Made by a program: the position numbers and the translations under genes. The notes beneath the pieces are model-generated. The model saw nothing but the letters and a program-made list of their open reading frames with translations. It was not told the DNA's origin and made no database searches. Positions 1,901 to 32,000 of a stretch of 32,000 nucleotides of DNA are shown piece by piece. The DNA is from Rhizomicrobium sp. (lineage in GTDB: Bacteria > Pseudomonadota > Alphaproteobacteria > Micropepsales > Micropepsaceae): contig DASZBL010000024.1 in assembly GCA_035944195.1 (NCBI GenBank), positions 8,720 to 40,719 of the forward strand, read 5' to 3'. How positions within the stretch are numbered: position 1 is the stretch's first letter; each line of letters starts with the position of its first letter.

Positions 1901-1918
1901 TGTTATTATCCCCCTCAC

Positions 1919-5257: not shown

Positions 5258-5312
5258 AATCCCCCCTGTTTTGACTTCTGTTGCGAACGGAATCGCGCGA
5301 CGTCGCCGCCGT

Positions 5313-7100: not shown

Positions 7101-7126
7101 TTGCAGCAATTCCGATTTGGCCGGAG

Positions 7127-8287: not shown

Positions 8288-8304
8288 TGTCGTTTCCCCC
8301 TCAC

Positions 8305-11643: not shown

Positions 11644-11683
11644 TTCCCCCTCCTTGCGGTTTTCACCGCCCTGTTTTTGAAAC

Positions 11684-13404: not shown

Positions 13405-13437
13405 CAAAACAAAGGCGGCGGATTCGCATCCGCCGCC
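13405..13437 (-). terminator. Rho-independent terminator closing cassette 3
   Basis: Perfect 10-bp stem GGCGGCGGAT / ATCCGCCGCC (13414-13423 / 13428-13437) with loop TCGC. On the minus strand it is followed by TTTGTTTTG, about 25 nt downstream of the OMP stop at 13463. Confidence 0.75.
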
Positions 13438-13462
13438 CGTTATCAAGAAGAACTTCTGCCCG

Positions 13463-14620: not shown

Positions 14621-14631
14621 TTCTACCCCCC

Positions 14632-17600: not shown

Positions 17601-18042
17601 CGGTGATGGCAATCGGAACCGTTTGGATATCACCTTTGATCTTTGAGGATGTGACGACCACGCTTTCAATTCCCGCCGCCGCCGCTGCTGCCACCCTCAC
17701 TGGAGTTGTTGGCATCAATTCGTTGACGCGCTGGGAGGGTTCGTCGTGAACCACGGCGATGGCGCCTGTTGGCGTGCGATGCGGTGAAAATCCTGTACCT
17801 TCCAGGATGCGCGAGAGTGCGGCCGTCGCAGTGAGTTCGCCTTTCGCGCCTTTGGTGCGCGCGCCCTTGATGGCTTCATCCGACACAATCAGCGGAATGA
17901 CGGCCTGCATCGAATAGGCATTGAGCGCGGTCTCCAGATCGCCGCCCGGAATGTTGAAATTCGCGGCGAATGCGCTTGCGCTCAGCGCAATTGCCGACAC
18001 GCCCCCTGCGAGCGCGGATTTCAGAATGTTGGATTTTCTCAT
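14632..18042 (-). CDS. TonB-dependent receptor with STN signalling domain, ~1136 aa, paralog 3
   Basis: Track ORF 14632..18093. Preferred start is ATG 18042 (MRKSNILKSALAGGVSAIALSASAFA...) after AGGGGGGAGTG. It has the same plug and C-terminus as its paralogs, plus extra Cys/Gly/Thr-rich loop insertions. Ends VRVTKNW. Confidence 0.93.
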   Translation of the reverse strand: MRKSNILKSALAGGVSAIALSASAFAANFNIPGGDLETALNAYSMQAVIPLIVSDEAIKGARTKGAKGELTATAALSRILEGTGFSPHRTPTGAIAVVHDEPSQRVNELMPTTPVRVAAAAAAGIESVVVTSSKIKGDIQTVPIAITALSQEQLTSRQIAGGPDLVKEVPNLTFSKTNFSGYTIQIRGIGTQAISVTTDPAVAVALNDIPFIRNHFFEQEFFDVNQVEVLRGPQGTLYGRNATAGVVNVISAKPTDQFEAMASADFGNYHNRRFEGMVNIPVVDDRADLRIAGEWTKRNGYSTNALTSSPIDGRDLWSTRVTLAIKPSEKLQAWVVWEHCQESDDRLRTSKQLCKTAPIPTNINGAYVPPPSPPLGYSGAIYLSQSCLPVSLYDKGDPAHGDYGAFGVPNGYTLPYYEPLGFEGVPITAEFNAFDPYANQSQSTHLRVIETTVPPIYKAKNDTIELNADYSVAPDLTFTSQTGYNHDFLWSTEDYNRFNTRPGAFTVDDSGRNTTTAEPNLGVYYDSGKNCTTPGSFTPGEGYCSPIGIFCDPQLGCSDRLVAQDLNDEKAWQLSQEFRLASNFSGPLNFSIGGNFLHYETEENYYVFINSLTMAIYTSVHSGVVSADSDQTQPWVAGVSDNSNCMAGGLEPPNPNIPSHTGVEGQIPCGYIDPNPLSHLNNEGHNYFLSQNPYTLNSYAGFGEVYYNVANDLKLTGGLRFTDDQKHFLDIPSQLLTGGYGYSVTRIVDQKWNELTGRLATNWTPKLDFTDQTLVYGSYAHGYKAGGANPPGATLLEFNNTGISDPIHPLTFKPEFVDAYELGTKNTAFDGGLTLNGDVFFYNYKAYQISRIVDRTSINDNFDATVRGAEVEAMWEPTPGLKFNFAGDYEDTRIDNGQSSIDLMDRADLAEHPDWMVVKPFVTQASNCILPVYVMAALVTVAPPTGTGYGVRTVPGACSTAYQYGLDPVTYNTYKANPKFPDDYIDGAAGSLYDPGPYPGWDPATAPNHGEGWAKNLGGNELPNAPHFTTSLSADYTMPVSEDWAATAHTDLYWQSQSWARVFNDRPYDKIRGYSNVNLALILTSASGWQAMGYLKNVFNTTTITGDFLNSDDSGLTTNVFLTDPRLFGVRVTKNW

Positions 18043-18094
18043 CACTCCCCCCTTCGTGCGGCTTCTCGCCACTGATTGCATTTGCCCCCGCACC

Positions 18095-19078
18095 TCAGCG
18101 CGAGATCAGAATTTCGGCTCCGCGGTTCTGCACATGCAGGCGAAACACGGTTTGCACCGCGTCGGTGAACGCATGCACATCGCCGGTCGGAAATGTTCCG
18201 TCGATCGTCAACTGCTCGGCAGCAGGATCGGCGATGGTGAGTTTGGTCTGGTTGTAGCGGTTAAACTCCGCAGCCGCGGCGGCGAGCGTGGTGTGTTTGA
18301 AAATCAGCACCCCGCGCCGCCAGCTAAGCTCGTTGGAAAGCGCGCGCTGCACGCCTTTGGCGACGGACATCGTGTTCGCGGTTGCCGTTGCGACATCGCC
18401 TGCCGACAACATCGCCGATTGCGCGGGCGTTTGTTTGTCCGCGGCGTCCACCCAAACGCGGCCCTGCACTACGGCGACCTGAAGCCGCCCTGAATCGCTG
18501 CGCACCAGGAATTTCGTTCCGAGATCGGTGACGCGATGACCGCCCGCGATCACGATGAAAGGATGCACGGTGTCGTGCTTTACCTGAAAATAGGCCTCAC
18601 CCTTTTCCAGCCAGACCACGCGCTCCTGCGTCGTCATACGCGCGCGCAGTCGCGTGTTTGTGTTCAACTCGATGCGCGAACCGTCGGTGAACGCAATGGA
18701 TTCATGCCCGCCAACCGATGTCGAATAGACGCGATCTTCCGGCGCCGACAAGAAAAACGCTACGCCAGCACCCAAAACCACGATGACGGCTAACGCCGCC
18801 GCCATCCGGAAAAAATTGCCGGAGAGCCGCCCGCTCTGCGCAAATTGTTCGCGTGCGGGCGGGCGCAATGCACCCAAGAGATCGGTGTGTCCCCACGCGC
18901 CGTTCAGCCGCCAATAAGCGATGCGATGGGCCGGCGATTCTTCCAGCCAAGTATTCAACGCCGCCTTGCCGGCATCGTCCCAATCCTCGCGGTCACTGCG
19001 TTCAATCCAGGATGCCGCCTGCGCGTTGATTTCTCTCGCGCTCGCTTCGACTTTCTGTTGGGGGTTTGCGTCGCTCAT
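18095..19078 (-). CDS. FecR-like anti-sigma factor, paralog 3
   Basis: Track ORF 18095..19243 is over-extended into the sigma gene. ATG 19078 (MSDANPQQKVEASAREINAQAASWIERSDREDWDDAGKAALNTWLEESPAHRIAYWRLNGAW) recreates the ATGA overlap with the sigma stop that cassette 2 shows (cassette 1 has the equivalent 4-nt GTGA overlap). Confidence 0.9.
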   Translation of the reverse strand: MSDANPQQKVEASAREINAQAASWIERSDREDWDDAGKAALNTWLEESPAHRIAYWRLNGAWGHTDLLGALRPPAREQFAQSGRLSGNFFRMAAALAVIVVLGAGVAFFLSAPEDRVYSTSVGGHESIAFTDGSRIELNTNTRLRARMTTQERVVWLEKGEAYFQVKHDTVHPFIVIAGGHRVTDLGTKFLVRSDSGRLQVAVVQGRVWVDAADKQTPAQSAMLSAGDVATATANTMSVAKGVQRALSNELSWRRGVLIFKHTTLAAAAAEFNRYNQTKLTIADPAAEQLTIDGTFPTGDVHAFTDAVQTVFRLHVQNRGAEILISR

Positions 19079-19659
19079 GCGCGCTCCCCCAAAACTGCGA
19101 TGTCGCCATAGAGCGTGTTGGCGAGCACGGCGATGCCGTTCGCCAGATGTTCGGATACGGTGTCCTGACTGATGCCCATGCGCGCGGCGATTTCGGGCCG
19201 GGACAATCCTTCGATCCGCCTGAGCACCACCACTTCGCGGCAACGCGGCGGCAGACGATCGAGCGCGGTTTGCAGGCGGCGCAGCAAATCGCGCGCAATC
19301 ACATTGCGATCCGGTCCCGGTACTTCGATGGCGGCACCCAGCGCATCCAGATCGGCCACGGCCTCGATCGGCACGACGTGTTCGCGGCGCACGCGATTGA
19401 TGAGAAGATTGCGCGCGGTGCGCAGTAGAAATGCCTTGGGCTGCGCGGGAACTTCCTTCCGCGCCGCTTCATAGACCCGCACATAGACTTCCTGGCGCAA
19501 ATCCTCGATCTCGCTTTTGTTGCGCCAGCTCTGTTGGAGGAAATGCATCAATATCGACTCCAGCGGAAAAATCTCGCGCAGAAACCAGGCCTCCAGATCG
19601 GACGCGCTCATGCACGCACCCGAGGCGCCGCTCTCATTGATCTCCGGTCTCTCGGCCAT
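19075..19659 (-). CDS. ECF (FecI-type) sigma factor, cassette 3
   Basis: MAERPEINESGASGACMSASDLEAWFLREIFPLESILMHFLQQSWRNKSEIEDLRQEVYVRVYEA...; region 4 is REVVVLRRIEGLSRPEIAARMGISQDTVSEHL. Confidence 0.9.
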   Translation of the reverse strand: MAERPEINESGASGACMSASDLEAWFLREIFPLESILMHFLQQSWRNKSEIEDLRQEVYVRVYEAARKEVPAQPKAFLLRTARNLLINRVRREHVVPIEAVADLDALGAAIEVPGPDRNVIARDLLRRLQTALDRLPPRCREVVVLRRIEGLSRPEIAARMGISQDTVSEHLANGIAVLANTLYGDIAVLGERA

Positions 19660-19800: not shown

Positions 19801-20021
19801 CCGGTGAAGATTTATCCGGCGGCTTCGCCAGAAACTCGATTAATTGGGTTTCGAACAGCGATTCCAGCGCCTTAGTTAAGATCAGCAAAACCAAAGAATT
19901 CCCACACTCATGGATAATACCGTGCTAGCATACCTAAATAATTGCTCGGCATTCGCTGCACTCGCGCACTGAGCGCAAGAAGCAACACATCTTTCTCGAA
20001 TTGAAGAAGGGAATTGCATTT

Positions 20022-20813
20022 ATGAAAAACTCGGCTTCATGCGCTTTACGGCTGGCGCTTCCGATAGCAACGCTTGTGTGGACATTCGGCGCGGCAGCCA
20101 CAGCGATGGCCGATGACAATGATCGCAGGGGCAGCATGGTGTATAGCGACAGCTCGCCCTATCAGGATCTGAAGAAAGAGCACTACCCCGACGCCCGCGA
20201 TGGTTTCGCGTCCTATTATAAAGACCATCCGGAAGATCCGCTGGTTCAGCTCGACCTCGGCCTGTCCTACCAGAAGCTTGGAAGAATGGATCTTGCTGAG
20301 CCGCTATTTCGCGAAGCCATGATGACAGGCACCCATCTCGTTCCCGATGTCACGACCACCGATCAATCCAGCGGCCTTACGGTCGCGGTGATCGCCTGCA
20401 ACAATCTCAAATATGGATTGCGGGATGCCGGTGCTTGCGGGCCAAAAATGGCGCCACCGCCGCCACCGGTGCGCAACTTCATCGTGTTCTTCGATTTCGA
20501 CAAATCGAATCTCACCGAGCAGGCGCAGCAAGTCGTGAGCGAGGCCGTGAGCGCCGCAAAAAGCGGTTCCATCACGAGGGTGACGATTGTCGGCCACACC
20601 GATACGACCGGTTCGCACAGCTACAATCAGGCGCTGTCCGAGCGCCGCGCCGCATCCGTGAAAGATGCCATGGTGAGCCAAGGCATGATCGGCGGCGATA
20701 TCGCGACCGAAGGCAAGAGCTACGACGATCCGCTGGTTCCGACGGGCCCGAACGTGCGCGAGCCGCAGAACCGCCGCGCCGTCATCACGCTGGGCGATGG
20801 CGCGGGTACCTGA
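20022..20813 (+). CDS. OmpA-C-like (OmpA/MotB family) peptidoglycan-binding protein with a TPR-like N-terminal segment
   Basis: The track ORF starts at TTG 20001. ATG 20022 is preferred (GAAGGGAA about 8 nt upstream). Signal peptide ALRLALPIATLVWTFGAAATAMA, a proline linker PPPPP, then the OmpA-C signature FDFDKSNLTEQAQQVV...VTIVGHTDTTGSHSYNQALSERRAASVKDAM...NRRAVI. Confidence 0.88.
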   Translation: MKNSASCALRLALPIATLVWTFGAAATAMADDNDRRGSMVYSDSSPYQDLKKEHYPDARDGFASYYKDHPEDPLVQLDLGLSYQKLGRMDLAEPLFREAMMTGTHLVPDVTTTDQSSGLTVAVIACNNLKYGLRDAGACGPKMAPPPPPVRNFIVFFDFDKSNLTEQAQQVVSEAVSAAKSGSITRVTIVGHTDTTGSHSYNQALSERRAASVKDAMVSQGMIGGDIATEGKSYDDPLVPTGPNVREPQNRRAVITLGDGAGT

Positions 20814-21194: not shown

Positions 21195-21216
21195 GGCGGC
21201 TTCAGCCGCCGTTTTT
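21195..21216 (+). terminator. Rho-independent terminator for the plus-strand pair; the hairpin overlaps the stop codon of the convergent patatin gene
   Basis: GGCGGC-TTCA-GCCGCC (21195-21210) followed by GTTTTTGTTT. The loop TTCA contains the complement of the patatin TGA stop (21202-21204). Confidence 0.6.
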
Positions 21217-22353
21217 GTTTGGGGAGAAATCCGCCGGATCGATCAGGCGCTCCGCCGCCAGACGGCCGATCTCATAAGCACGCGGGATGATATCGGGATC
21301 GTCCATCAGGCGCAGTTTCGCGATTTCGGAATCCGAAACAGCGATATCCAGTTCCTGTTTCAGCCAATCGGCTTCCAATTGCACATCATAGCGCTGAAAG
21401 CCGAACAGCGGCGTCGCGAACGGCGTATTGTCGTTCGCAAGCGTGCCTATCTCGCTGTTGATGGGCGAAGAGGAATGCGTGCCCGATAGCCAATGCAGCA
21501 GCGTCAACGCGTGGGTTTCGGTATCGGCAACGAGCCCAGTCAGCGCATGAACCGCCAGCGCCGCCGAAGGCAGATGCTGGGTCGCGGCATGGGTGAGCCG
21601 TCGGCGATGTGATCCCGTTCCCACCGAGACAATGGAAAGATTTTCCTTTCCCAGCGGCCAGCGCAGCCCGAAACCATCCAGCGCCGCCATCAATAGAAGC
21701 TGCAGCGATGGATTGTTGTGCGGGCTGACGCCGCCATCGACAAAAAGTCCCGGCGGCGCGCCCTCGGCGATCATCAGCATTTCCGGATCGAAATAATGCG
21801 GCGCCGCGGTCGAGGCGCGCACCAGATGCGCGAGCTTGAATGCATGATTGCCGATATAGGAACTATCCTGCGGCGTTTGCCAATAATGCGCGCGCGGATT
21901 GTTGCTGATGATCCACGGGCTTCCCGTATCCATGCGCTTTGTCACCACCGCGAGGCCGGTGAGCAGATCGGGCGTATCCAGCGTGCGCTGGCCGATCACC
22001 GTATCGAGTTCGCGTTGCAGCAGCGTGGAATCGAATTTCGCTTGCAGCCCAATAACGCGCCACGAATTGTGTTGGAAAGCGCGCGGCCCCATGCGCATGT
22101 AGAAATCATGTACGTCCGCCGCGCTATGACCGAGCGCCAGCGCGGTTGCGATGATGGCGCCCGTCGATGTGCCGCCGATCAGGTCGAAATGGTCGCAGAG
22201 GCGAATCTTGCCGTTGGCGCTGAGAATTTTTTCGATGCGTTCGAGAAACGCAATGGTGATCGCGCCGCGCACGCCGCCGCCGTCGAGCGACAGGATGCGC
22301 TTCGGGCCAGGGCCGAAGAGATGGCGATCCCGGCTGGACATTTCATCGTTCAT
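21202..22353 (-). CDS. Patatin-like phospholipase (383 aa), last gene of the operon
   Basis: Oxyanion-hole motif LDGGGVRG (res 23-30), nucleophile elbow GGTSTG with Ser63 (nt 22165-22167), and catalytic Asp in FVDGGVSPHNNP (Asp206, nt 21736-21738). ATGA overlap with the upstream gene stop. Confidence 0.93.
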   Translation of the reverse strand: MNDEMSSRDRHLFGPGPKRILSLDGGGVRGAITIAFLERIEKILSANGKIRLCDHFDLIGGTSTGAIIATALALGHSAADVHDFYMRMGPRAFQHNSWRVIGLQAKFDSTLLQRELDTVIGQRTLDTPDLLTGLAVVTKRMDTGSPWIISNNPRAHYWQTPQDSSYIGNHAFKLAHLVRASTAAPHYFDPEMLMIAEGAPPGLFVDGGVSPHNNPSLQLLLMAALDGFGLRWPLGKENLSIVSVGTGSHRRRLTHAATQHLPSAALAVHALTGLVADTETHALTLLHWLSGTHSSSPINSEIGTLANDNTPFATPLFGFQRYDVQLEADWLKQELDIAVSDSEIAKLRLMDDPDIIPRAYEIGRLAAERLIDPADFSPNKNGG

Positions 22354-24272
22354 GGTAAGCGTTCCGCGACGGCGCGCTCATCTACCCACGCTGCGAACGC
22401 GCTGCCCAATGCATTTTCCATCGCTTCCATTTCTGCGGGTCTCGTGCCGGAGTGCAATATCGCCCAGACATGCGCGCCGCTCGCTTCTGCGGCGCGGCGC
22501 GCAACTTCAGCATCGGCGGGTTCGGCGAGCAGCACAAGATTTTCGCCGGGCGCGGCTTGCAAATTTGTTTCCGTGCCGCTGACAATCCGGTTTCGCCGGA
22601 TGGATTTTCCCGCGGCGGCAAGAATAGCAGCGATGCTGCGCACTAGATCGCGATTGGTTTGGCGCGCCTCTTCGCCAAGCGCGTCCCATTCCACCAGCAA
22701 AGGATGGCGGCGGATCAGGTCGTCGCGCACCGCGCCATATTGCCAGCCGAGCAGTCTCTGCTCGATGCACCAGCGCTGATGCTCCATTTGCGTGAATATC
22801 TCAATCTCGTCTTCTCGCAACGCAGCGCCCGCACCCGCCTCGCCGATGTCGAGCCCAAACCGCGCCAGCTTGACGGCAATATGATCGGCAAAAAGCCGGT
22901 TGGAGCGCTTCATGCGCTCCGGCAACCTATCCCATGATTGCGAATTGCCATGTCCGCGCGCATAGACTTCGTGGGTGGCGCGCGCCAGACGATCAACCGG
23001 ATTGTGCAGCAGTAATTGGGGATCGGCCATCAATCCGCCGCTGCCGAAAGTGACGAAACGGTCGCTCGACGGTCGGCGCTTTTCGGTTTTTTCGATGAAG
23101 GCTCCCAGTTCCGGCCGCTTCTGCGCGCGCGCATAAATGGGCACATTGAAAAGCCCCGCCAGATCCGATTGCCGCCGGAAATCGAGCGCTGCTTCGATAT
23201 TGATTGTGTCCTGCCCGGTCGTGATCACCACCGCGTCCGGCGCTCCTTCAGAAAGTAACCCGGATATGAATTCGCGATCGTCTGCGGGCCCGAATTCACG
23301 CTCGTGGAACGACAGATCGGCCAGATCGAACAGCGCCGGCCATTGCCGCTTGATCGCAGCAGTTGCGGCAGCGATATTCTTGTCGGCAATCGCAACGGAA
23401 AGCCTCGTTCCAGGAATGGCGAAATAGCCCTGCACTGCTTGAATCAGAATTTCGAGCCCCATCTTGCCGAGACCCACCATCACCAGCCGCGGCTTCACGG
23501 ACGGAAGCGGCAGCAATTTGCGCCGGGCAGACCAGCCATTGAGCAGCGCACGCGCGGCACTCTCATAGAAATTCACAACGATGAATTCAGCCTTGTCCGT
23601 GCTTAGCGAGGCGGTGTACCCCGCAATCGCATGCAGCAGCCAGGCGTCGCGCACTTCGCACAGGATGCGTAGCGGTTTTCCGGCAGGCCGCGCAGCACAG
23701 GCATCGCGCGCGCGCAGTGCTATCTCAAGATTCACGGAATCGGACCCGCAGGAAACCACCAGCGTGGTTGCCTTCAGCAATCCGGCGAGTTTCAGCAGAT
23801 GCACGTCCGCGGCGCTGCCTTGCAGCACGGGAACGCCCGCCAATTCCACCGGCATCGAATTTTCGCAAGCCGCATCGGATTCGATGGCGACGACATGCTG
23901 CCTGGCCGCCCTTTGCCCGAGCGCGATGGTGCGCCCGGTTTGTCCCAATCCGCTCACGATCACATGGCCGCGCGCGCGACGTGCCAGCGCCACGCGCATG
24001 TCGCGGCGGATATGCAGCAGCAGCAATTTCGCGGCGCCGAAAAGCGCGATGCCCGGCACCAGCCATTGCGCAATCGCCAATTGCCAGGGATGCGAATAGC
24101 TGGCGCCGCCGCGAACGAGGCTGAAAGCGCGCAGCATCTTGTCGACCGGCGTGACGACATGACAATCGCTGCAAACGGAAAATCCCCAATAGGCCAGACC
24201 GAGCGCGATCGCGGCGATGGGTATAAAGACGTACCAGTTGCTGGGACTGGAGGGACTTTTTTGCGGCGTCAT
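22350..24272 (-). CDS. Membrane protein (640 aa): 2 TM helices + two Rossmann (TrkA-N/RCK-like) domains + RyR-like repeat module + short C-terminal alpha/beta extension
   Basis: TM1 WYVFIPIAAIALGLAYWGF and TM2 LAIAQWLVPGIALFGAAKLLLL. GxGxxG motifs VIVSGLGQTGRTI (nt ~23934-23951) and LVMVGLGKMGLEI. RyR-like module (res ~425-552, nt 22617-23000): LARATHEVYA...WDRLPERMKRSNRLFADHIAVKL...EIFTQMEHQRWCIEQRLLGWQYGAVRDDLIRRHPLLVEWDALGEEARQTNRDLVRSI. ATGA overlaps at both ends. Confidence 0.85.
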   Translation of the reverse strand: MTPQKSPSSPSNWYVFIPIAAIALGLAYWGFSVCSDCHVVTPVDKMLRAFSLVRGGASYSHPWQLAIAQWLVPGIALFGAAKLLLLHIRRDMRVALARRARGHVIVSGLGQTGRTIALGQRAARQHVVAIESDAACENSMPVELAGVPVLQGSAADVHLLKLAGLLKATTLVVSCGSDSVNLEIALRARDACAARPAGKPLRILCEVRDAWLLHAIAGYTASLSTDKAEFIVVNFYESAARALLNGWSARRKLLPLPSVKPRLVMVGLGKMGLEILIQAVQGYFAIPGTRLSVAIADKNIAAATAAIKRQWPALFDLADLSFHEREFGPADDREFISGLLSEGAPDAVVITTGQDTINIEAALDFRRQSDLAGLFNVPIYARAQKRPELGAFIEKTEKRRPSSDRFVTFGSGGLMADPQLLLHNPVDRLARATHEVYARGHGNSQSWDRLPERMKRSNRLFADHIAVKLARFGLDIGEAGAGAALREDEIEIFTQMEHQRWCIEQRLLGWQYGAVRDDLIRRHPLLVEWDALGEEARQTNRDLVRSIAAILAAAGKSIRRNRIVSGTETNLQAAPGENLVLLAEPADAEVARRAAEASGAHVWAILHSGTRPAEMEAMENALGSAFAAWVDERAVAERLP

Positions 24273-24952
24273 GCGGGCTCTTTCTGGCGCGACGAAAGGC
24301 AGCCACGCTCCAGCGCCATCATGTTGGCACCCAGGCTTTCGGCTCCCGCTTTGTCGTTCGATGTCACCAGTAGCGCTACGTGCTGCACGGCGACGAGGCG
24401 CTTGAGATCGGCCTGCAATTCCGCGCGCGCTTCGGGATCGAGACCTTCGAACGGCGCGTCGAGCATGACGATGTGCGGTTCGGTGATGAGCGCGCGCGCC
24501 AGGAGCGCCCGCTTGGTGAGACTGGCGGAAATCTCATTGCTCTGCGCATTGCGCCACGGATCGAGATCAAAATTGATCAGGCAATGTTCCAGCCGCTTCT
24601 CGATTTCGCTGTCGGCGAGTTCCAGTTTGCAAAGCGGGAAGGCGAGATTTTCCGCGAGCGTCAGATCATGCAGCAGCGCGCCGTTTTCCAGCACAAGCCC
24701 GATATGACGGCGCAGCTTGTGCCATTCATGTTCCGGCAAATTCTCGGCCGCCTCGCCCGCGATCTGCAAGTGACCTTCCGAGGCGCGCTCGAGGCCCGCG
24801 AGCAGGCGCAACAAAAGCGTCTTGCCTGAGCCGCTGCGCCCGACAATAGCCATGCATTGGCCGCGTTCCAGCGTGAAGGAAATATCGTCGAGCACGCGTG
24901 CGCCACCGCGCATGAGCGCCAGGCCGCGCGCCTCGATCATGATCTCGCTCAT
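24269..24952 (-). CDS. MlaF-like ABC ATPase subunit with degenerate catalytic motifs (227 aa)
   Basis: Track ORF 24269..25747 is over-extended across the permease gene. ATG 24952 (MSEIMIEARGL...) overlaps the permease stop as ATGA. Walker A GRSGSGKT is intact (nt 24818-24841). Signature is ISASL rather than LSGGx (24518-24532). Walker B is IVMLDAP, with Ala where the catalytic Glu should be (24455-24457). H-loop is VTSND, with Asn for His (24356-24358). Confidence 0.88.
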   Translation of the reverse strand: MSEIMIEARGLALMRGGARVLDDISFTLERGQCMAIVGRSGSGKTLLLRLLAGLERASEGHLQIAGEAAENLPEHEWHKLRRHIGLVLENGALLHDLTLAENLAFPLCKLELADSEIEKRLEHCLINFDLDPWRNAQSNEISASLTKRALLARALITEPHIVMLDAPFEGLDPEARAELQADLKRLVAVQHVALLVTSNDKAGAESLGANMMALERGCLSSRQKEPA

Positions 24953-25740
24953 GCGCCTGCCCCGGCGAAGATCGCGGCAGCGCCGAATATCGCGAGCAGC
25001 GAGATCACGAAGGTCCGCCACGCAGCGGCTTCGAGCGTTTGCGGATCGCGGCCTGCGCCGCTGCCTTCGGCAGAGGCGATGCCGAGCGCGAGCATCGCAT
25101 AAACTTCCACGCGCAGGAACCCAAACCAGAAATCGCTGCGTGCGCCTTCGGCAAAAACGATCGTCGTATAGCGGGCAACAGGAATCGCCTCGAATTGCTG
25201 TAGCGTGAGCGCGGCTGCCAAATGCGCGATGCCGTCTCCCCAAACCAGCAATGCCGCCGCCGCAAAGAGGAATGCGAGCAAGCTCGCGGGCAATACATGA
25301 TCGGCCGGGTCCACACCCATCAGGCGCAGGGAATCCACTTCGCCGCCTGCGATCATGCGCCCAATTCGCACGGCGAGTGCCACGCCCGAGCGCCCGGCGA
25401 CGAAAATCCCGATCAGCACCGGCATCACTTCGCGCATCAGTGCCGAGCGCAACGCTCGCAATAGCGGTTCTTCCAGATTCACAACATGAAACGCCCGCGA
25501 CACGCTGAAGGCTAGCACCAGCCCCGTCAGCGCGGCCAGCATGGTGACGATGGGCAAGGGACGCAATGCGGTGTCGGAGAGCGCATCCACCGTGCGGCGG
25601 CGCGCAAACCTGTCGCCGCGCAGCAGCGCCGGAAGGCCGACAAATGCGGCTTGCAGGAAAAATGCGAACAGGCCGACATTCTCCACGCCACCCTGAATCG
25701 CGCGACCGCCGGCATTTCTGATGTCCCCGATCATTGCCAT
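24949..25740 (-). CDS. MlaE-like ABC transporter permease
   Basis: Polytopic hydrophobic protein of MlaE-like size (263 aa). It carries the MlaE-type core REVMPVLIGIFVAGRSGVALAVRIGRMIAGGEVDSLRLMGVDPADHVLPASLL. The start is 25740, or 25734 which would give an ATGA overlap with the upstream stop. Confidence 0.85.
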   Translation of the reverse strand: MAMIGDIRNAGGRAIQGGVENVGLFAFFLQAAFVGLPALLRGDRFARRRTVDALSDTALRPLPIVTMLAALTGLVLAFSVSRAFHVVNLEEPLLRALRSALMREVMPVLIGIFVAGRSGVALAVRIGRMIAGGEVDSLRLMGVDPADHVLPASLLAFLFAAAALLVWGDGIAHLAAALTLQQFEAIPVARYTTIVFAEGARSDFWFGFLRVEVYAMLALGIASAEGSGAGRDPQTLEAAAWRTFVISLLAIFGAAAIFAGAGA

Positions 25741-27323
25741 GGCGCACGCCTCAGAGCACCGTTCAAATCGAGTTCGATTATGCGAGCAGCGCTTTGCGAA
25801 GTGGCACTTCCGATTTGAATGACGAAATCGGCTGCGGCGGCAGACGACACCAAAATGGTTTCGGCCCTCCCCGCCAGAGCGATTGCTTCGGGCGGAAGAT
25901 TCTCGTTCGGCTGAACGATCACGCTTAATTTGGCTTTGGCGAGGGCGATCTCGGCGGCGCGGCGCTGAACGGGGGATGCAAGCGCCGTGCGCAATACAAG
26001 CACGCGCTCCGGGTAGCGCTTCGTCAAATCATCTAATAGATACGGAAAGCCTGTGTCGAAGCCACTTTGGGGCGCGCCGCCGCCATGAAGCGCCAGCGTG
26101 AGATCGCGCAGGATCGTCTGCTTCACGCGGTCGAGTTGGGCGGGAATGGCGCGCACCGAAAGCCGGTCGAGATCGCGGATTTCGGGCGTCAGCGATTCAT
26201 AGGGAACCAGCAGCGGCGTCAGCTTCGCGGCATCGTCGCGCGTTTCGCCATAGCGCCAGCCATCCAGCATCTGCACGGCAGCCCAGCGCTGATGCTCCAT
26301 TTCGGCGAGCGCTTCCCGTTCTTCCGTCGTGAACGCGAAGCGCGGGCCGCCATCCGCCGGAACGATGTGGCAGGAAATCGCCGCGAGCTTGCAGGCGATG
26401 TGATCGGCCTGATGGCGCGACGCGGCGCGGAAGCGCTCGGGCAGCGCGTCCCATGGCTGCATGCTGGGACGAATGCCGATTGTGTGGCCCGCTTGCCGCC
26501 GCTCTTCGAGATAGAGTTCGTGAATGGCCTGCGCCTGCAAATCGGCGGGGTCTGAAAACAGCGCCGCCACGGCCTCGCGCCAATCGGTTTGCAGCACGGC
26601 AATCGTTCCGGCGGGTGCTGGGCCAGCGCAAGGAAGCCAGTAGACCGGCACAAACCAATCGGGATGTTTCTGCGCATTCCATATCGCAGCATCGGCGACA
26701 TAGATAGCGGATGCAGCGCCATCCCAGTTTTCGGTTGCCGCAAGCGTTCCGATTTCTTTCAGCGCGGGCAACGAAGATGTAAGCGCATCGAGCCAGCGTT
26801 CGCCGCCCACAATCGTCGCGCGCGGCTTGACGCCGGGCAAATGCATCATGCGGAAAAGCTGAAGCAGAATTTGCTCGGCTTCCGCGCCCGTGCCGAAAAT
26901 AACCGGCTGCGGTGCTTGCGCGTCATAGTTCAACCGGCCGAATGGATGATCGAGCAGCAGACGCCGCGCCATGCGCTGCGATGCCGATAGTGGGCGCACG
27001 CGCAAACCATTGCCGGTTTCTGAATCGAAATCCTGTATGGCAGTGAGCGCGGCTTGCGTTTCCGCGGCAATGGCGAAAATTGTTTGCTGCCCGGAGATCT
27101 GCCAGCCTGCAGCCGCCTTACGCGCTGCATCGAGATCGGTCTGTTCGTCGCCGCTGGCGAATATCACGCAGGTGGGTGATTTTTGATCAGAAAGCGCCGC
27201 AACATCGGGCAAACGCGTGACGTGATAGCCTGCGCCTATCGCGCCTTGCACAATCGGCTCAACCGCACCCACAACGACAAGCTCGCCGCCCGGCTTAATC
27301 GCGCGTTGCAGCCATTTCAGCAT
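25731..27323 (-). CDS. Soluble paralog (530 aa): two degenerate Rossmann-like domains + RyR-like repeat module + C-terminal alpha/beta extension
   Basis: Track ORF 25731..27686 is over-extended across the lipoprotein gene. ATG 27323 (MLKWLQRAIKPGGELVVVG...) overlaps the lipoprotein stop by 7 nt. RyR-like module (res ~262-396, nt 26136-26540): QAIHELYLEE...WDALPERFRAASRHQADHIACKL...ALAEMEHQRWAAVQMLDGWRYGETRDDAAKLTPLLVPYESLTPEIRDLDRLSVRAIP. It is collinear with the 22350-24272 protein. No TM helix was seen. Confidence 0.82.
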   Translation of the reverse strand: MLKWLQRAIKPGGELVVVGAVEPIVQGAIGAGYHVTRLPDVAALSDQKSPTCVIFASGDEQTDLDAARKAAAGWQISGQQTIFAIAAETQAALTAIQDFDSETGNGLRVRPLSASQRMARRLLLDHPFGRLNYDAQAPQPVIFGTGAEAEQILLQLFRMMHLPGVKPRATIVGGERWLDALTSSLPALKEIGTLAATENWDGAASAIYVADAAIWNAQKHPDWFVPVYWLPCAGPAPAGTIAVLQTDWREAVAALFSDPADLQAQAIHELYLEERRQAGHTIGIRPSMQPWDALPERFRAASRHQADHIACKLAAISCHIVPADGGPRFAFTTEEREALAEMEHQRWAAVQMLDGWRYGETRDDAAKLTPLLVPYESLTPEIRDLDRLSVRAIPAQLDRVKQTILRDLTLALHGGGAPQSGFDTGFPYLLDDLTKRYPERVLVLRTALASPVQRRAAEIALAKAKLSVIVQPNENLPPEAIALAGRAETILVSSAAAADFVIQIGSATSQSAARIIELDLNGALRRAPWQ

Positions 27324-27934
27324 CGCGCGGATTGCGGCGCGTTGACCGCGCTCGCGGCCATGTCTTGTGTGAGATGCACAAGCACCTGACGAAATGCTTC
27401 GTCGAACGCCGCCTCGATTCCTGCCGCACCATCGCCGGCCCGCGGCTGCTGTGCGCAATAAGAGCCCATCAGAAACGCCTGCCGCTGCGGCCCTTTGAGA
27501 ATGGTCACTTCCAGATCGACAATCGCCGTGCCGTCTGCGGAAAGCTCGAAGCGGTCGAGCCGCGCCGAGAGCATGTAGTCCGCAATTCCCGGCAGATCGG
27601 GCGCAAATACGGCGTCCGCGATCTTTGCCGCGCGCAATACCTGCGTGACGACGATGGAAGCGGCCTGCGGCGGGGTTTCCTCCCACAGGAAACTTGCCGA
27701 TTGCTTGCGCTCGTTGGGCGCTTGCGCGTCGAAATAGACCAGACGCCGCTCGCCCAGAAGACCGCGCGCCTGAAATGGCTGCACCTGGAGCGCGCCTTGC
27801 AAATGCGTGGCGGCAACAGGCATTTCGGACGGCGCATCCAGCCGCATGTTGCGGCTTTCCGGTGCGGTGCTGCAGGCCGCCAGCATCGACGCCGCAAACA
27901 GCACAACCAATCGAAAGGAAGAAATGTTTCGCAT
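27317..27934 (-). CDS. ABC-type transport auxiliary lipoprotein (PqiC/YmbA-like, DUF330-type)
   Basis: Lipoprotein signal peptide with lipobox LAAC (Cys21, nt 27872-27874). About 200 aa, positioned directly after an MCE gene as is usual for this family. Begins 3 nt after the MlaD-like stop. Confidence 0.75.
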   Translation of the reverse strand: MRNISSFRLVVLFAASMLAACSTAPESRNMRLDAPSEMPVAATHLQGALQVQPFQARGLLGERRLVYFDAQAPNERKQSASFLWEETPPQAASIVVTQVLRAAKIADAVFAPDLPGIADYMLSARLDRFELSADGTAIVDLEVTILKGPQRQAFLMGSYCAQQPRAGDGAAGIEAAFDEAFRQVLVHLTQDMAASAVNAPQSARC

Positions 27935-27937
27935 GCG

Positions 27938-28867
27938 CTATCTCGGTTTGGTGTCGGCTGGATCGCCAAGCGCGCGGCCGCTGACCATCGCGCGTGGATC
28001 GTCGCGAAGCTTGGCGGTGATCTCCTTCAGATCGGCACTCGCCGCCTGCATGTTCGCAGCGATGGAGGCCATCGATGTCGCGGTCACGCCCAGAATATAG
28101 CGCAGATCGGTGACCGACGAACCCACCGGCTCCGCATTTTTGTGCACCAGCCCGTTCATTTCGGTGGCAGCGAGACTTGCCTGCTTGGACGTGGCCGCAA
28201 GATTGTCGATCATCGATGCGATCTGGCGCTGGCGCTTGTCGTTCAGCAAGCCGCGCGCGGTTTCGCTGATAGCCTGCACATTGGTCAGCGTTGCGTTCAT
28301 GCGCGCGATGAGCGCGACCGATCCGTTCGCCGAAGCGCCGCCGGCCTTAATCTCTTCCGGCGTCGGTGCCAGCGCACGCAGCACGGTGTTCACGCGTTCA
28401 ACCGTATCGCGGGTGGTGTTGATCGTCTGCAGGGTCAGCTCGATCATGCTGGGATGATGCCCGCAACCGCGCAATTGCGCGCCCGGCAGCGAAGGGTCGT
28501 AAGTGGGTTCGGGACAATCCTTGCCGCGCGCGATGCTCAAGGTCGCGGGTTGCAGCGGATTGGGCGCGTCGATCACCAGCCCGACATCGCGCATATCCTC
28601 CGTCTGCCAATCGGGATCGAGCCGCACGCGCACCAGAAACCGCCGCTCGCGCAGATGCTGCTCGATGCGCGTGACATGGCCGATCACGAAGCCTTCATCT
28701 TTTACCGCCGCGCCTTCGCCCAGATTGGCAACGTTCTTGAATACCGCGACATAAGGATGGCGCCGGTCCAGCACCTCTGGCGCGAAGGCAGCGACAAGCG
28801 CCACCACGACCAGAATGGCGATGGTTGCAAGGCCAAGCCGGAATTGCAGAACAGGATCAGGACGCAT
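27938..28867 (-). CDS. MlaD/MCE-domain protein (309 aa), first gene of the operon
   Basis: N-terminal TM LGLATIAILVVVALVAAF. MCE-domain signature YVAVFKNVANLGEGAAVKDEGFVIGHVTRIE...RVRLDPDW. A long helical C-terminal region. Confidence 0.85.
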   Translation of the reverse strand: MRPDPVLQFRLGLATIAILVVVALVAAFAPEVLDRRHPYVAVFKNVANLGEGAAVKDEGFVIGHVTRIEQHLRERRFLVRVRLDPDWQTEDMRDVGLVIDAPNPLQPATLSIARGKDCPEPTYDPSLPGAQLRGCGHHPSMIELTLQTINTTRDTVERVNTVLRALAPTPEEIKAGGASANGSVALIARMNATLTNVQAISETARGLLNDKRQRQIASMIDNLAATSKQASLAATEMNGLVHKNAEPVGSSVTDLRYILGVTATSMASIAANMQAASADLKEITAKLRDDPRAMVSGRALGDPADTKPR

Positions 28868-28991
28868 GGAATATGATCGACCTTCGACCTCTGTGGTCTA
28901 TCATGATTGGCGCGCCGGTTGAACCCGCTTCCAATTCGCGCTGCGGCATGCTGGACTGAGCGGGCCTCATTGAATTGATCCCCTCATTTCC

Positions 28992-31900
28992 ATGCAGCCA
29001 TTGCGGATTTTTGTCTCTTCGCCCTCGGATGTGAATCCGGAGCGCGCGGCTGCCGCCCGTGTGATCGACAGGCTGGGCCGCGAATTCGGCGGTTTCTTCG
29101 CCATCCAGGCCGAATTGTGGGAGCAGGAGCCGCTGCGCGCCACGGCGGATTTTCAGGGGCAGATCCCGCGCCCCTCAGAAGCCGATATCGTGCTGGTGGT
29201 GGTGTGGTCGCGATTGGGCACGCGGCTGGCGCCGGGCAGCTTCAAGGGCTCACTGAGCGGCGGTGCGGTGACCGGCACCGAGTGGGAATTCGAGGATGCC
29301 GCCCGCAGCTTTCGCGAGCGCGGCGTGCCCGATCTGCTCTTCTATCGCAAGACCGCGCGCATCGACATCGCACTTGGCGATGATAATGCCATCGAGCAGC
29401 GGCGCGAAGAAAAGCGTCACCTCGATCAATTCCTGCAGAGCTGGTTCTTCACCGAGACGGCGGAGTTCAAGGGCGCGTTTTCGTCTTTCACCACCACGCA
29501 TGAATTCGAACTCATCGTTGAGCAGCATCTGCGCAAGCTTATTCAGGCGCGCGTGAATGCGCTGGATGTGGCCTCCGCTCAGGCCCCGCCGGCGCGCTGG
29601 CAGGGCGGCTCGCCGTTCCGCGGGCTCGAGCCGTTCGACGTGGAACATGCGGGAATTTTCTACGGCCGCAGCCGCGCGCGCATGGAAGTGCGCGAAGCGT
29701 TGACAACGCGCGCCGCGCAAGGCGCTGCGTTTGTCTTGCTGCTCGGGATGAGCGGTTCGGGAAAATCCTCGCTGGTGCGCGCGGCGTTGATCCCAGATCT
29801 CGCCGTGCCCGGCATGATCGAGCAGGTGGGATTGTTCCGCTATGCGCTGCTGCGGCCTTCGGATTCGCCTGCCGATCCGCTCGCCGCATTGGCCGAGGCG
29901 CTGATTGCGGATTCGGCGCTGCCCGAATTGGAAAGCATGGGTTGGAATGCCGCGCGAATTGCAGAGCAGCTTGGCTCCGCGCCTGAAGATATGCTGCCGG
30001 TTCTCGAAGAAGCATTGGAAAAGGCAGGCGTCGCAGCGGGCCTTCTGGAAGGCGCAAAGGCGCGGCTGTTGCTCGCTGTCGATCAACTCGAAGAATTGTT
30101 CACGCTGACGGGCCTTGAACCCGAAACGCGCGACCGCTTTATCAATGCGCTGCATGTTCTGGCGCGCAGCGGCACGGTGTGGGTCATCGCCACAATGCGC
30201 AGCGACATGTTCCATCATCTGGCGTCGGCGCCGCGGCTCGCGGAACTGGCGGAAGGTGTGGGCCAATATCATTTGCTGCCGCCGCAGCCTTCGGAGATTT
30301 CGCAGATCATCCGCGAGCCGGCATCGGCAGCGGGCCTGCGCTTCGAGATCGACCCGAAAACCAATGTCGGGCTCGATGAAGTTTTGCATGAGGCGATGGA
30401 AGATGATCCCGCGGCGTTGCCGCTGCTCGAATTCACGCTGGACGAATTGTTCAAGACGCGCACGGCGCGCGGCGTGCTGACTTACGAAGCCTATAATCGC
30501 CTCGGCGGAATCGAGGGCGCGCTGGCGCGGCGCGCGGAAGATGTTTTCGCGGGCCTTCCCGGCGATACGCAGAATGCCTTTGCTTCCGTCGCGTGTGCGC
30601 TTGTCGTGCAGCAGCGTGGCAGCGGCGGCGGATTCGCGGCGCGGCGCGCACCCTGGAGCGAATTTGCGAACGATTCCGCGCGCGCGGCATTGGTGGATGC
30701 TTTCGTCGCGGCGCGCCTCTTCGTGACCGATGCGGGCGAAGGCAGTGCGCGCACCATTCGCGTGGCGCATGAAGCGTTGTTCCGTTGCTGGCCTCGCATG
30801 CGCGAGGCGCTGGAGCGCGATGCGGCATTTCTCGTCGCGCGCGAAAGGCTGGCAACCGCTACTGAGCGCTGGCTTGCCGAAGACCGCGCGCCCGATTTCC
30901 TGCTGCAAGAGGGCCGCGTTCTGGCGGAAGCCGAAGAATTGCTGCAGACGCGCGGCAATGACCTCGACCCCACCGTACAGGAATTCATCGCCACTTCGGC
31001 AGAGGCCGTACACAGGCGGCGCACGCGCGGTTTGCGCTGGGCCCGCGCAATTGCTGCGGGGTTTGCGCTGATTGCCATAATCGCGGGGGGGGCCGGATGG
31101 TTCGCCTTGCAAAATCGCGACGCGGCCGAGCACGCGCGCAATGAAGCGGTTGAGCGGCGCGACGGCGCACTGCGCTCGGAAAGTTTTTTCCTGGCGGCAC
31201 TTTCCTACAAATCGACCAAATCGGGCGATCCTGTCAGCGGCGCGCTGCTGGCGCGCGCAGCCATGCCTCGCGAGATTGCCAAACCCGACCGCCCCCTGGT
31301 GAATGAAGCGCGCGATGCGCTGGCCTACGCGCTGGCGAGTTTGAAAGAGGAACGCGGCGTTATCCGCCATTCGGGCGACAAGGTGCAGGCGTCTTTTTTC
31401 CCCAACGGCACGGTCGGAAGCATCGGCGGCAATGATCCGCTGCGTCTGTCGCGCGTGCCTGACGGCAAGGAGATCGCGCATTTCGGAGACCACGCGCCCG
31501 GCAATGCATGGATCAACGACGATGGCAGCCAGATCATTCTGCTCGATGGCGAAAATCTGAAATTCTTCGACAGCGCGACGGGAAAACAGACAAGACAGCT
31601 CCCGCTGGCCAAGCGCGCCGACGGTCTGGTGAATGTCATTATAGATACACCCCTGTCGCGCGCAGCACTTTATTATGCGGGCGCTGGCGCGGAATTGATC
31701 GCGCTGCCGCATGGGCGTGTGCTGACGAAATTCGGCAATGCTTCGCCCGTTCTGCTGATGCAGCTTGCGGGCAAATCCTTGCTGTGGGCCGATGTGGCGG
31801 GCGATTTGGTTTTGCAGAACGCAAGCGACGGCGGCGGGATACGCCCGCTTGTCGGACATAAAGGGATGGTGACGGCGATTGCGTTGTCGCCCGATCTCGC

Positions 31901-32000
31901 TGCGAGCGGCGGCATCGATGGAACGGTGCGGCTTTGGTCGATAGCGGATGGAAGCCCGCGCGGCGTGTTCCAGCATGGCAGCCCGGTGCTGAATCTTCAG
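28992..32000 (+). CDS. TIR-like/DUF4062-like N-terminal domain + STAND P-loop NTPase (nSTAND1-like) + TM helix + WD40 repeats; partial (open at the right window edge)
   Basis: Not in the ORF track because there is no stop in the window. I read frame 0 from ATG 28992 to 32000 codon by codon over most of its length and found no stop (1003 codons). N-terminus: MQPLRIFVSSPSDVNPER...ADIVLVVVWSRLGT...GTEWEFEDA...PDLLFYRK. NTPase entry motif SPFRGLEPFDVEHAGIFYGR. Walker A GMSGSGKSS (29745-29768). Walker B LLLAVDQLEELF (~30066-30101). TM WARAIAAGFALIAIIAGGAGWFAL (~31038-31112). WD40 blade GHKGMVTAIALSPDLAASGGIDGTVRLWS (~31854-31940). Confidence 0.85.
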   Translation, partial: MQPLRIFVSSPSDVNPERAAAARVIDRLGREFGGFFAIQAELWEQEPLRATADFQGQIPRPSEADIVLVVVWSRLGTRLAPGSFKGSLSGGAVTGTEWEFEDAARSFRERGVPDLLFYRKTARIDIALGDDNAIEQRREEKRHLDQFLQSWFFTETAEFKGAFSSFTTTHEFELIVEQHLRKLIQARVNALDVASAQAPPARWQGGSPFRGLEPFDVEHAGIFYGRSRARMEVREALTTRAAQGAAFVLLLGMSGSGKSSLVRAALIPDLAVPGMIEQVGLFRYALLRPSDSPADPLAALAEALIADSALPELESMGWNAARIAEQLGSAPEDMLPVLEEALEKAGVAAGLLEGAKARLLLAVDQLEELFTLTGLEPETRDRFINALHVLARSGTVWVIATMRSDMFHHLASAPRLAELAEGVGQYHLLPPQPSEISQIIREPASAAGLRFEIDPKTNVGLDEVLHEAMEDDPAALPLLEFTLDELFKTRTARGVLTYEAYNRLGGIEGALARRAEDVFAGLPGDTQNAFASVACALVVQQRGSGGGFAARRAPWSEFANDSARAALVDAFVAARLFVTDAGEGSARTIRVAHEALFRCWPRMREALERDAAFLVARERLATATERWLAEDRAPDFLLQEGRVLAEAEELLQTRGNDLDPTVQEFIATSAEAVHRRRTRGLRWARAIAAGFALIAIIAGGAGWFALQNRDAAEHARNEAVERRDGALRSESFFLAALSYKSTKSGDPVSGALLARAAMPREIAKPDRPLVNEARDALAYALASLKEERGVIRHSGDKVQASFFPNGTVGSIGGNDPLRLSRVPDGKEIAHFGDHAPGNAWINDDGSQIILLDGENLKFFDSATGKQTRQLPLAKRADGLVNVIIDTPLSRAALYYAGAGAELIALPHGRVLTKFGNASPVLLMQLAGKSLLWADVAGDLVLQNASDGGGIRPLVGHKGMVTAIALSPDLAASGGIDGTVRLWSIADGSPRGVFQHGSPVLNLQ

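Follow-up and report, generated by a model that had tools for sequence, protein, structure and literature searches.

The locus described here raises the question of whether a sensor gene with a predicted transmembrane (TM) helix and the seven-gene operon that diverges from it act as one signalling system and, if so, which signal passes between them. It covers at least 10.8 kb (21202-32000) of a 32,000-nucleotide stretch of DNA from Rhizomicrobium sp. (GenBank assembly GCA_035944195.1, contig DASZBL010000024.1, positions 8,720 to 40,719), hereafter called the window. The single plus-strand gene encodes a DUF4062 (NIR)-like domain of a family of NADases, fused to an nSTAND1 nucleoside triphosphatase (NTPase), a TM helix and WD40 propellers. 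The seven minus-strand genes encode, in this order, an MlaD-like protein, a PqiC-like lipoprotein, a soluble RCK-RyR protein, an MlaE-type permease, an ATP-binding cassette (ABC) ATPase, a larger RCK-RyR protein with two TM helices (2TM-RCK-RCK-RyR) and a CapV-like patatin. The best explanation for this arrangement is that the locus is one composite conflict or envelope-surveillance unit working via NAD+-derived metabolites. In the relay that we favour, and to which we give a probability of about 0.55, the NADase sensor would feed an ADP-ribose (ADPR)-type ligand to the channel-like RyR/RCK receptor, and the envelope effectors would be the patatin and a non-hydrolysing MCE bridge. With good confidence, we make the weaker claim of a functional link between the STAND gene and the operon.

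The functional link is indicated by the conservation of the pair. The initial annotation had proposed that the two divergent units belong together and had asked whether such a STAND gene recurs beside operons for RyR-Rossmann, MCE and patatin proteins. It does: the complete layout, including the divergent STAND gene, is found again in L004/L005, in L009 (a Rhizomicrobium metagenome-assembled genome) and in L081, a close relative. Protein identities to the window are 43-75% in L004 and L009 and 77-97% in L081. In L004 and L009, they reach 71-75% for the STAND N-terminus, 65% for the NTPase, 52-60% for the MlaD-like protein, 51% for the RCK-RyR protein and 69% for the patatin. Over L004, L009 and L081, the STAND orthologues are 65-97% identical, and the MlaD-like orthologues 52-96%. 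None of the genes of the left flank of the window is present in the L004/L005, L009 and L081 loci. Since these loci share no flanking genes, the module travels as a unit.

The pairing extends beyond this layout. A word-indexed search returned 20 relatives of the larger RCK-RyR protein (640 amino acids), and a full hidden Markov model (HMM) scan returned 3,626 representatives (50% identity clustering, E <= 1e-30), the top 150 being all full length with E <= 1e-98. Neighbourhoods were compared at 52 non-duplicate loci carrying this 2TM-RCK-RyR family, obtained from homologue neighbourhoods, a scan of one genome per species and metagenomes. All related loci are metagenome-assembled or metagenomic and several of their genes are frameshifted; with phylogenetic non-independence, the associations effectively amount to perhaps 8-10 lineages. 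A TIR or NIR gene lies at most 4 kb from the RCK-RyR gene in 19 of the 52 loci, mostly less than 500 bp away, and at 4.5-4.7 kb in three window-type loci, and 469 kb of outer flank contain no unrelated TIR/NIR match. The family adjoins TIR or DUF4062-STAND genes in Alphaproteobacteria, Acidobacteria, Verrucomicrobia, Chloroflexi and Actinobacteria. For instance, a NIR-nSTAND1-TM-WD40 gene is located beside RCK-RyR in three loci from Acidobacteria (L023, L026 and L027; N-terminal domain 47-48% identical to that of the window) and in one from Verrucomicrobia (L046; 32%). In L026 and L046, the two genes share a strand and are separated by 106 and 242 bp. A locus from Chloroflexi (L038) has a true TIR_2-nSTAND1-TM-WD40 protein in the STAND role beside RCK-RyR. 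Furthermore, L023, L027 and L046 carry both a stand-alone TIR protein and a NIR-nSTAND1 protein near the RCK-RyR gene, so one NADase-family protein does not simply replace the other.

The commonest neighbour of RCK-RyR genes, found in about 30 loci, is a protein of about 600-660 amino acids with DUF4231 and SLATT_1 domains (e.g. L001:8097-10004 and L007:7794-9788). Its conserved N-terminal part of about 330 amino acids carries the motifs G(I/V)xGHR, PLAEGADR and GRGGT, and gave two weak hints against Pfam, to SLOG and to nucleoside deoxyribosyltransferase (E ~0.01). This partner may be the same as the untested Thoeris candidates that Yirmiya et al. label 'SLOG and 4TM' (10.64898/2025.12.03.692087). 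In L037, the genes for RCK-RyR, the SLATT protein, an unknown protein and a patatin 51% identical to that of the window make up one operon.

Among the competing explanations, the one that survives best, which we nevertheless consider unlikely, holds that the two units are autonomous neighbours. The NIR-nSTAND1-WD40 protein would be a self-contained NAD+-depleting Avs-like sensor, the operon an unrelated membrane or lipid system, and their adjacency a result of co-transfer or island clustering. Indeed, NIR-Avs2 acts as a single gene (10.64898/2026.09.04.749371), and the divergent transcription of the two units, with no conserved shared operator, points the same way. Moreover, five other NIR-nSTAND1 homologues from outside this lineage were sampled (N-terminal domain 46-50% identical in three of them and 40-43% in two), and none has an RCK-RyR (TrkA_N or RyR) gene within 10 kb. 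An obligate partnership between STAND gene and operon is thus ruled out, and the coupling is recurrent but facultative from the STAND side. Autonomy accounts poorly, however, for a pair that is kept across three lineages at 43-75% identity with different flanks, or for the same STAND type in an operon-like arrangement with RCK-RyR in two other phyla. It also leaves aside that TIR genes are frequent near RCK-RyR and absent from the outer flank, and that the RyR pockets of the operon match pockets known to bind NADase products. The co-conservation proposed by the initial annotation hence holds for the window-type loci but not for the five stand-alone homologues. At the stand-alone loci, the STAND genes are split by frameshifts in long-read assemblies, and a small or medium-sized gene without Pfam match lies just upstream on the opposite strand (L086:9363-9947, L087:9523-9933, L088:9345-9959 and L090:8727-9791).

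These pockets belong to two proteins, one of 640 amino acids (22350-24272, minus strand) and one of 530 amino acids (25731-27323, minus strand). They score 44.1 and 58.5 bits, respectively, against RyR (PF02026, cut-off 27.4), and a PDB sequence search matched Repeat12 of RyR1-3, down to E 1e-18. Such domains are known from phages, in which some RyR proteins cleave 2'/3' cyclic ADPR (cADPR) and others are sponges that bind 3'cADPR, 2'cADPR and cADPR with nanomolar affinity; the pocket holds ADPR (PMC13232231; 10.64898/2026.06.04.730250). RyDEP is a glycosidase with the dyad H75/D117, its W78 stacking on the adenine and its H100 touching the phosphates, and RyR Tad gp68 is a sponge using H129/W132, K147/H154 and K170/D171 (same sources). 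Five ligand positions were compared: His, Trp at +3, Lys/Arg at +18, His at +25 and Asp at +42. In an alignment with gp68 (L080), the 640-amino-acid protein has H498, W501, R516 and H523, which align with H129, W132, K147 and H154 of RyR Tad, and deviates at +42, where N540 takes the Asp position. The 530-amino-acid paralogue has H344, W347, R362 and D386, and deviates at +25 (T369). Its three orthologues keep all five residues unchanged, and at the position of D386 the phage RyR proteins have their catalytic or ligand Asp. Across the family, the pocket His is invariant and the aromatic residue kept in 41/41 motif-extracted RyR segments and in the separately aligned acidobacterial members (Trp, or Phe/Tyr in Acidobacteria). 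The host and phage proteins share PF02026, and in the larger host protein the H, W, K/R and H ligand residues have the same spacing as in the phage proteins. However, RyDEP and RyR Tad are small, soluble anti-defence proteins, whereas the domain described here is host-encoded and genomically linked to the NADase side, and its fusion partners are either a 2TM module with two RCK domains or RCK alone.

A conserved W-x-x-L-P-E-R-x-K-x-S-N-R-x-x-A-D-H-I stretch precedes the Pfam RyR match in both proteins (amino acids ~440-470 of the larger and ~290-315 of the smaller). It resembles the C-terminal half of a RyR repeat, and about 190 columns are covered by the Foldseek match to RyR3. For these two reasons, one chain may imitate the tandem Repeat12 that arises in phage proteins through dimerisation.

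The 640-amino-acid protein combines this pocket with a channel-like architecture. It matches TrkA_N with 55.7 bits, and its AlphaFold2 (AF2) model, with a mean predicted local distance difference test (pLDDT) score of 84, contains two TM helices flanking a short helix, a pair of Rossmann/RCK domains that both carry GxGxxG, a helical domain and, at the C-terminus, a small alpha/beta domain. The best Foldseek matches of the model are GsuK and the TrkA gating ring (E 1e-9, TM-score 0.3-0.5), Slo2.2 and MthK being also matched. Its helical part is closest to human RyR3 Repeat12 in complex with ATP or ADP (E ~1e-6). Confidence is lower in the TM region (pLDDT 55-74, and 55-65 across the inter-helix loop). 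The family consensus of this loop, which lies with the short helix between the TM helices (amino acids 34-61 of the 640-amino-acid protein), reads R-G-x-G-x-Y/F-S, followed by PWQL. Helix and loop recall the pore helix and filter of K+ channels, minus TVGYG. From the model, the 640-amino-acid protein is a candidate ligand-gated channel-like receptor. With GsuK, MthK and the TrkA ring, it shares a predicted 2TM and tandem RCK fold, and a soluble RCK paralogue alongside, as in MthK- and Ktr-type rings. It differs from RCK-gated K+ channels by an RGGASYS loop in place of TVGYG and by its additional RyR Repeat12-like and C-terminal alpha/beta domains; its channel activity is a prediction. The 530-amino-acid paralogue has no TM helix. 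Its RCK and RyR parts fall within the match to the family HMM, its first Rossmann fold is degenerate, and its start, MLKWLQ, is kept in the orthologues.

The same pockets could also be read as brakes, an explanation that we judge less probable still than autonomy. The two units would then be linked, but the RyR proteins would serve as host sponges or glycosidases, sequestering or degrading ADPR-type products and thereby setting a threshold for activation or sparing the cell, and killing would be left to NAD+ depletion or to the patatin. All characterised RyR-domain proteins of the same clade are sponges or a glycosidase (PMC13232231; 10.64898/2026.06.04.730250), and the paralogue has His344 and Asp386 at the positions of the RyDEP dyad in all three orthologues. 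Yet a buffer would hardly be expected to look like the main member of the family, a membrane protein of 640 amino acids that combines two RCK domains with a channel-like 2TM module; it also has Asn at the acid position. Furthermore, the Asp of the paralogue is no proof of catalysis, since RyR Tad, a pure sponge, also has one. Within the relay, the soluble paralogue may nonetheless buffer or switch off the signal instead of transmitting it, because it keeps the His/Asp pair used by RyDEP.

The signal would originate from the plus-strand gene (28992-32000), the 3' end of which is cut by the end of the window; its full-length orthologues encode 1479-1494 amino acids. It comprises the N-terminal DUF4062/NIR-like domain (amino acids 1-205, 28992-29606) and the nSTAND1 P-loop NTPase (29607-31031), a putative oligomerisation switch that matches PF20703 over amino acids 208-634 (305 bits, E 1.3e-90), the locus HMM spanning amino acids 206-680. 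A single TM helix is then predicted from a hydropathy scan (amino acids ~684-706, 31041-31109), preceded by an Arg-rich stretch, and the WD40 beta-propeller sensor region begins at 31767 and runs to the window end (32000). The succession of an N-terminal effector, a STAND NTPase and C-terminal repeats is that of STAND/Avs-type NLR-like sensors. The TM helix directly C-terminal to the NTPase is found in 12/12 nSTAND1 proteins near RyR-RCK genes, so these are not of the soluble cytosolic sensor type. With such a helix between NTPase and repeats, the WD40 part would sit outside the cytoplasm.

The sensor part also diverges fastest. The TM/WD40 part (31032-32000) is 77.5% identical to L081:2134-3108, versus 96.6% for the NADase and 93.9% for the NTPase parts, a faster evolution that is expected for a sensor in conflict. 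In the same comparison, the soluble RyR paralogue is 79-84% identical and the lipoprotein 88%, versus 95-97% for the MlaD-like, MlaE and larger RCK-RyR proteins. These sequence differences suggest diversifying pressure on the STAND sensor part and on the soluble paralogue.

The initial annotation had called the N-terminal domain TIR-like. From its sequence, it appears to be a divergent DUF4062 (NIR) domain, and it is not a Pfam TIR domain. The window sequence matches PF13271 (DUF4062) over the full model, with 20.1 bits (E 7.5e-4), below the cut-off of 24.7, and 11 of 19 close homologues match this family, with a best E of 1.4e-6. Pfam TIR, TIR_2 and ThsB_TIR match no protein of the window, a TIR HMM has no match there either, and a PDB sequence search with the profile of the domain returned no match. 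DUF4062, or NIR, is established as a TIR-like NADase with ADP-ribose and nicotinamide as its products by two preprints, one of which makes it the N-terminal effector of Avs STAND proteins (10.64898/2026.05.01.722283; 10.64898/2026.09.04.749371). Among these, NIR-Avs2 works as a single gene (10.64898/2026.09.04.749371). A further 2026 preprint also treats DUF4062 (10.64898/2026.06.25.731849). The invariant motifs of the domain are RIFVSSPxDV..ER, WSRLG and GTEWEFE.A. In the last one, E97, E99 and E101 are invariant across 19 sequences, and a helix of the model begins at residue 95, each of these three residues being a candidate for the catalytic Glu. The AF2 model (pLDDT 85) has a three-layer alpha/beta fold.

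With NIR-Avs2, Swarozyc, Vulcan and Vesta, the STAND protein has in common an N-terminal DUF4062 domain, a STAND NTPase, C-terminal repeats and a conserved Glu motif. However, these systems are cytosolic, act alone and deplete NAD+, whereas here a TM helix, an external WD40 part and nSTAND1 rather than the Avs NTPase are predicted. The locus is not a plain NIR-Avs system, because its sensor is predicted to span the membrane and is conserved beside ADPR-pocket proteins. Conservation beside proteins with ADPR-type pockets also suggests that the NIR product is read, and not merely lost.

The remaining operon genes point to the envelope. The MlaD/MCE-like protein (309 amino acids, 27938-28867, minus strand) has an N-terminal TM helix, an MCE domain and a long helical C-terminal part; it scores 22.8 bits against Pfam MlaD, under the cut-off of 25.1, and matches NCBIfam MCE with E 7.6e-9. 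It is followed by an ABC_trans_aux (PqiC-like) lipoprotein of 205 amino acids (27317-27934, minus strand; PF03886, 47.3 bits) with a signal peptide and Cys, a gene that the initial annotation had not named. The MlaE-type ABC permease (263 amino acids, 24949-25740, minus strand) scores 115 bits against a cut-off of 22.5 and has five hydrophobic helices. The MlaF-like ABC ATPase (227 amino acids, 24269-24952, minus strand; ABC_tran E 1.1e-25) has an intact Walker A (GRSGSGKT), but its Walker B reads D-A for D-E and the His of its H-loop is replaced by Asn. Where a hydrolysis-competent subunit would carry the catalytic Glu, next to the Walker B Asp, the window has Ala, L009 has Ser and L004 has Ala. 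In place of LSGGQ, the signature reads ISASL in the window and LSPTQ and LSPTV in L009 and L004. Judging from these motifs, the term 'non-hydrolysing' used in the initial annotation is correct and applies to the orthologues too; the subunit would bind ATP without hydrolysing it. As in Mla/Pqi MCE transport, MlaE, an MlaF-like subunit, an MCE protein and a PqiC-like lipoprotein are encoded in one operon. In contrast to these transporters, the ATP-binding subunit lacks the catalytic Glu and LSGGQ in all orthologues, RyR/RCK genes are interleaved, and MlaB, MlaC and MlaA are absent.

The patatin-like phospholipase (383 amino acids, 21202-22353, minus strand; 95.8 bits) has all its motifs intact: the DGGGxRG oxyanion motif, the nucleophile in GTS63TG and the Asp in DGG. 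Its best matches are models of CBASS (CapV-type) lipases, effectors of the signal-activated kind (PADLOC effector phospholipase, E 8.9e-46), with which it shares the intact catalytic dyad. It differs from CapV in scoring 124 bits against NCBIfam CBASS_lipase, below the equivalog cut-off of 200, and in the absence of any CD-NTase from the window; its activating ligand, if any, would be NAD-derived. The weakest alternative is an envelope-homeostasis circuit without immune function, in which the periplasmic WD40 sensor and NAD(H)-sensing RCK domains would regulate a Mla-type transporter and a phospholipase for outer-membrane remodelling; it would suit the predicted periplasm-facing sensor, the Mla/MCE/PqiC parts, the lipase, a flank of FecIR/TonB cassettes and OmpA with no defence-island neighbours, and hosts that are soil Alphaproteobacteria, but it is very unlikely, since the loss of the catalytic Glu in all ATPase orthologues makes active transport improbable, the NADase, the STAND module, the CapV-type patatin and the sibling SLATT/TIR partners are hallmarks of conflict systems, and the sensor region evolves fast.

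The relay that we favour would begin with the plus-strand protein, which according to its sequence carries the NIR-type NADase domain, nSTAND1, the TM helix and WD40 in one chain. A cue bound by the propellers, probably in the periplasm, would drive NTP-dependent oligomerisation and so turn on the cytoplasmic NADase, as we infer from STAND/Avs and TIR biology. The NADase would turn NAD+ into ADP-ribose or an ADPR isomer, and the NAD+ level would fall. The RyR and RCK domains of the 640-amino-acid protein and of its soluble paralogue would sense this product, and possibly also the drop in NAD+. Residue conservation, gene neighbourhoods and the biochemistry of phage proteins support the reading of the product by the Repeat12-like RyR pockets. 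In addition, NAD+, NADH or ADP may be read by the RCK Rossmann folds, as in GsuK, a channel controlled by NAD+ and ADP. A mixed gating ring is probably formed by the two paralogues, like that of the tethered and soluble RCK subunits of MthK-type channels. The last step is the least certain: ligand binding would open or permeabilise the 2TM module and unleash the CapV-like patatin, and the Mla/MCE/PqiC-like bridge would connect this event with the outer membrane, either providing lipid or spreading the damage, with envelope collapse or growth arrest as the result.

Several observations weigh against this relay. On the side of the generator, assayed NIR domains produce ADPR only, with no cyclic isomers, and are depletion effectors (10.64898/2026.05.01.722283; 10.64898/2026.09.04.749371). 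Since these members merely hydrolyse NAD+ to ADPR, signal synthesis by the NIR domain is a hypothesis. In addition, hhalign found no similarity between the N-terminal family and the TIR_2 domains of sibling loci (probability 0.65%). Foldseek of the N-terminal model against the PDB returned generic flavodoxin-like matches only (TM-score 0.3-0.4) and no TIR among the 50 matches listed, so the TIR-like fold of this domain is not confirmed structurally. The STAND protein needs no partner in principle, because NIR-Avs proteins act alone by depletion and the five other homologues stand alone. On the side of the receptor, the proposal that the RyR-like domain reads an NAD-derived product gains from the phage precedent and from the His, Trp, Arg and His residues, but binding of linear ADPR as a signal by RyR domains is an assumption, and the 640-amino-acid protein does not contain the TVGYG K+ selectivity filter. 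On the side of the gene neighbourhoods, about 30 of the 52 RCK-RyR loci have no TIR or NIR gene, and the combination of Mla genes and patatin is confined to one alphaproteobacterial lineage, except for the patatin of L037, the sibling loci using the SLATT protein. Finally, PADLOC recognised no known system in the locus, its matches being the patatin, as a CBASS-type effector, and generic ABC models, and recognisable defence genes are absent near the loci whose neighbours were inspected. An anti-phage role is an assumption, because no inspected locus lies in an obvious defence island.

Among known systems, the logic resembles that of Thoeris and TIR signalling. Thoeris and related systems of types I-XI (10.64898/2025.12.03.692087) also combine a generator of NADase fold with a separate protein carrying an ADPR-ligand pocket, and with membrane-acting effectors. 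SLATT, which occurs in type VII Thoeris, is also present in sibling loci of the RCK-RyR family, with a bona fide TIR_2. The present locus differs in having no TIR, the candidate generator being DUF4062/NIR fused to a STAND module with an extracytoplasmic sensor, and in its Mla/MCE set, which is unprecedented in TIR-signalling systems. It is not filed as Thoeris because the defining TIR domain was not found. The survey of TIR systems lists about 30 effector types, and no RyR or TrkA label was found among the effectors in its text or in the available part of its tables (10.64898/2025.12.03.692087). The 'ion channel' effector of type X Thoeris is not equivalent to the 640-amino-acid protein, being an unrelated protein of 208 amino acids. 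In a Vibrio-like contig (L085:2740-4468), this type X effector has no Pfam match and is encoded between two ThsB_TIR genes.

The gene layout given in the initial annotation was borne out by open reading frame (ORF), Pfam and junction analysis. Overlaps of 4 nucleotides are found at the MlaE/ABC, ABC/TrkA_N-RyR and TrkA_N-RyR/patatin junctions, overlaps of 7-10 nucleotides at both junctions flanking the RyR-only gene, and 3 nucleotides separate the MlaD-like and lipoprotein genes. Since all junctions overlap or are 3 nucleotides apart, the seven minus-strand genes make up one translationally coupled operon. The divergent intergenic region (28868-28991), put at about 125 bp in the initial annotation, measures 124 bp. 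It contains one weak sigma-70-like match (28877-28904, plus strand), but the promoter and terminator scan was not usefully above shuffled sequence, and the intergenic comparison found no shared operator or conserved motif beyond the close relative L081. Long antisense ORFs (29250-31976 on the minus strand; 27332-28876 and 21718-22779 on the plus strand; 353-908 amino acids) were rejected as genes, being Arg/Ala-rich shadows of real genes in DNA of 62-64% G+C. The left part of the window (725-19659, minus strand) contains three tandem paralogous cell-surface-signalling cassettes. Each encodes an unknown protein of 391-397 amino acids, a TonB-dependent receptor of 1112-1153 amino acids (one with STN), a FecR anti-sigma factor and, judged from one Pfam match and the ORF layout, an extracytoplasmic function (ECF) sigma factor. 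An OmpA-family gene (20001-20813) follows these cassettes.

Our literature search returned no description of host-encoded RyR proteins or of RyR receptors beside TIR/NIR genes, and the papers on phage RyR proteins contain no functional discussion of bacterial homologues (PMC13232231; 10.64898/2026.06.04.730250). These preprints left open why the RyR domain exists and whether the animal Repeat12 pocket sees cADPR. The data presented here suggest a new bacterial signalling system, with a pairing that recurs in several phyla, and new elements within NAD-derived signalling immunity: a receptor class, a generator candidate and an effector set. A broader proposal is possible, and we advance it tentatively. 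Host 2TM-RCK-RyR proteins would be ligand-gated channels and the natural receptors for the ADPR-type products of neighbouring TIR or NIR proteins; the Repeat12 pocket of animal RyR would descend from a bacterial NAD-signal receptor, whose domain phages also captured for use as a sponge; and NIR would be a signal generator, more than an NAD+ depleter, with output to a CapV-like lipase and a hydrolysis-dead MCE bridge.

If the relay is correct, this locus and its approximately 50 siblings would supply the missing host side of the phage RyR domains. They would represent a large and apparently undescribed family of bacterial membrane proteins that fuses a RyR pocket to a channel-like RCK architecture and is encoded beside TIR or NIR NADases. 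The locus would also be the first candidate case of a DUF4062/NIR domain in signalling, and a patatin, a non-hydrolysing Mla/MCE bridge and a periplasm-facing STAND sensor would enter NAD-based immunity. Moreover, the family would offer a tractable bacterial model for the gating of a channel by an ADPR-derived ligand via a RyR domain.

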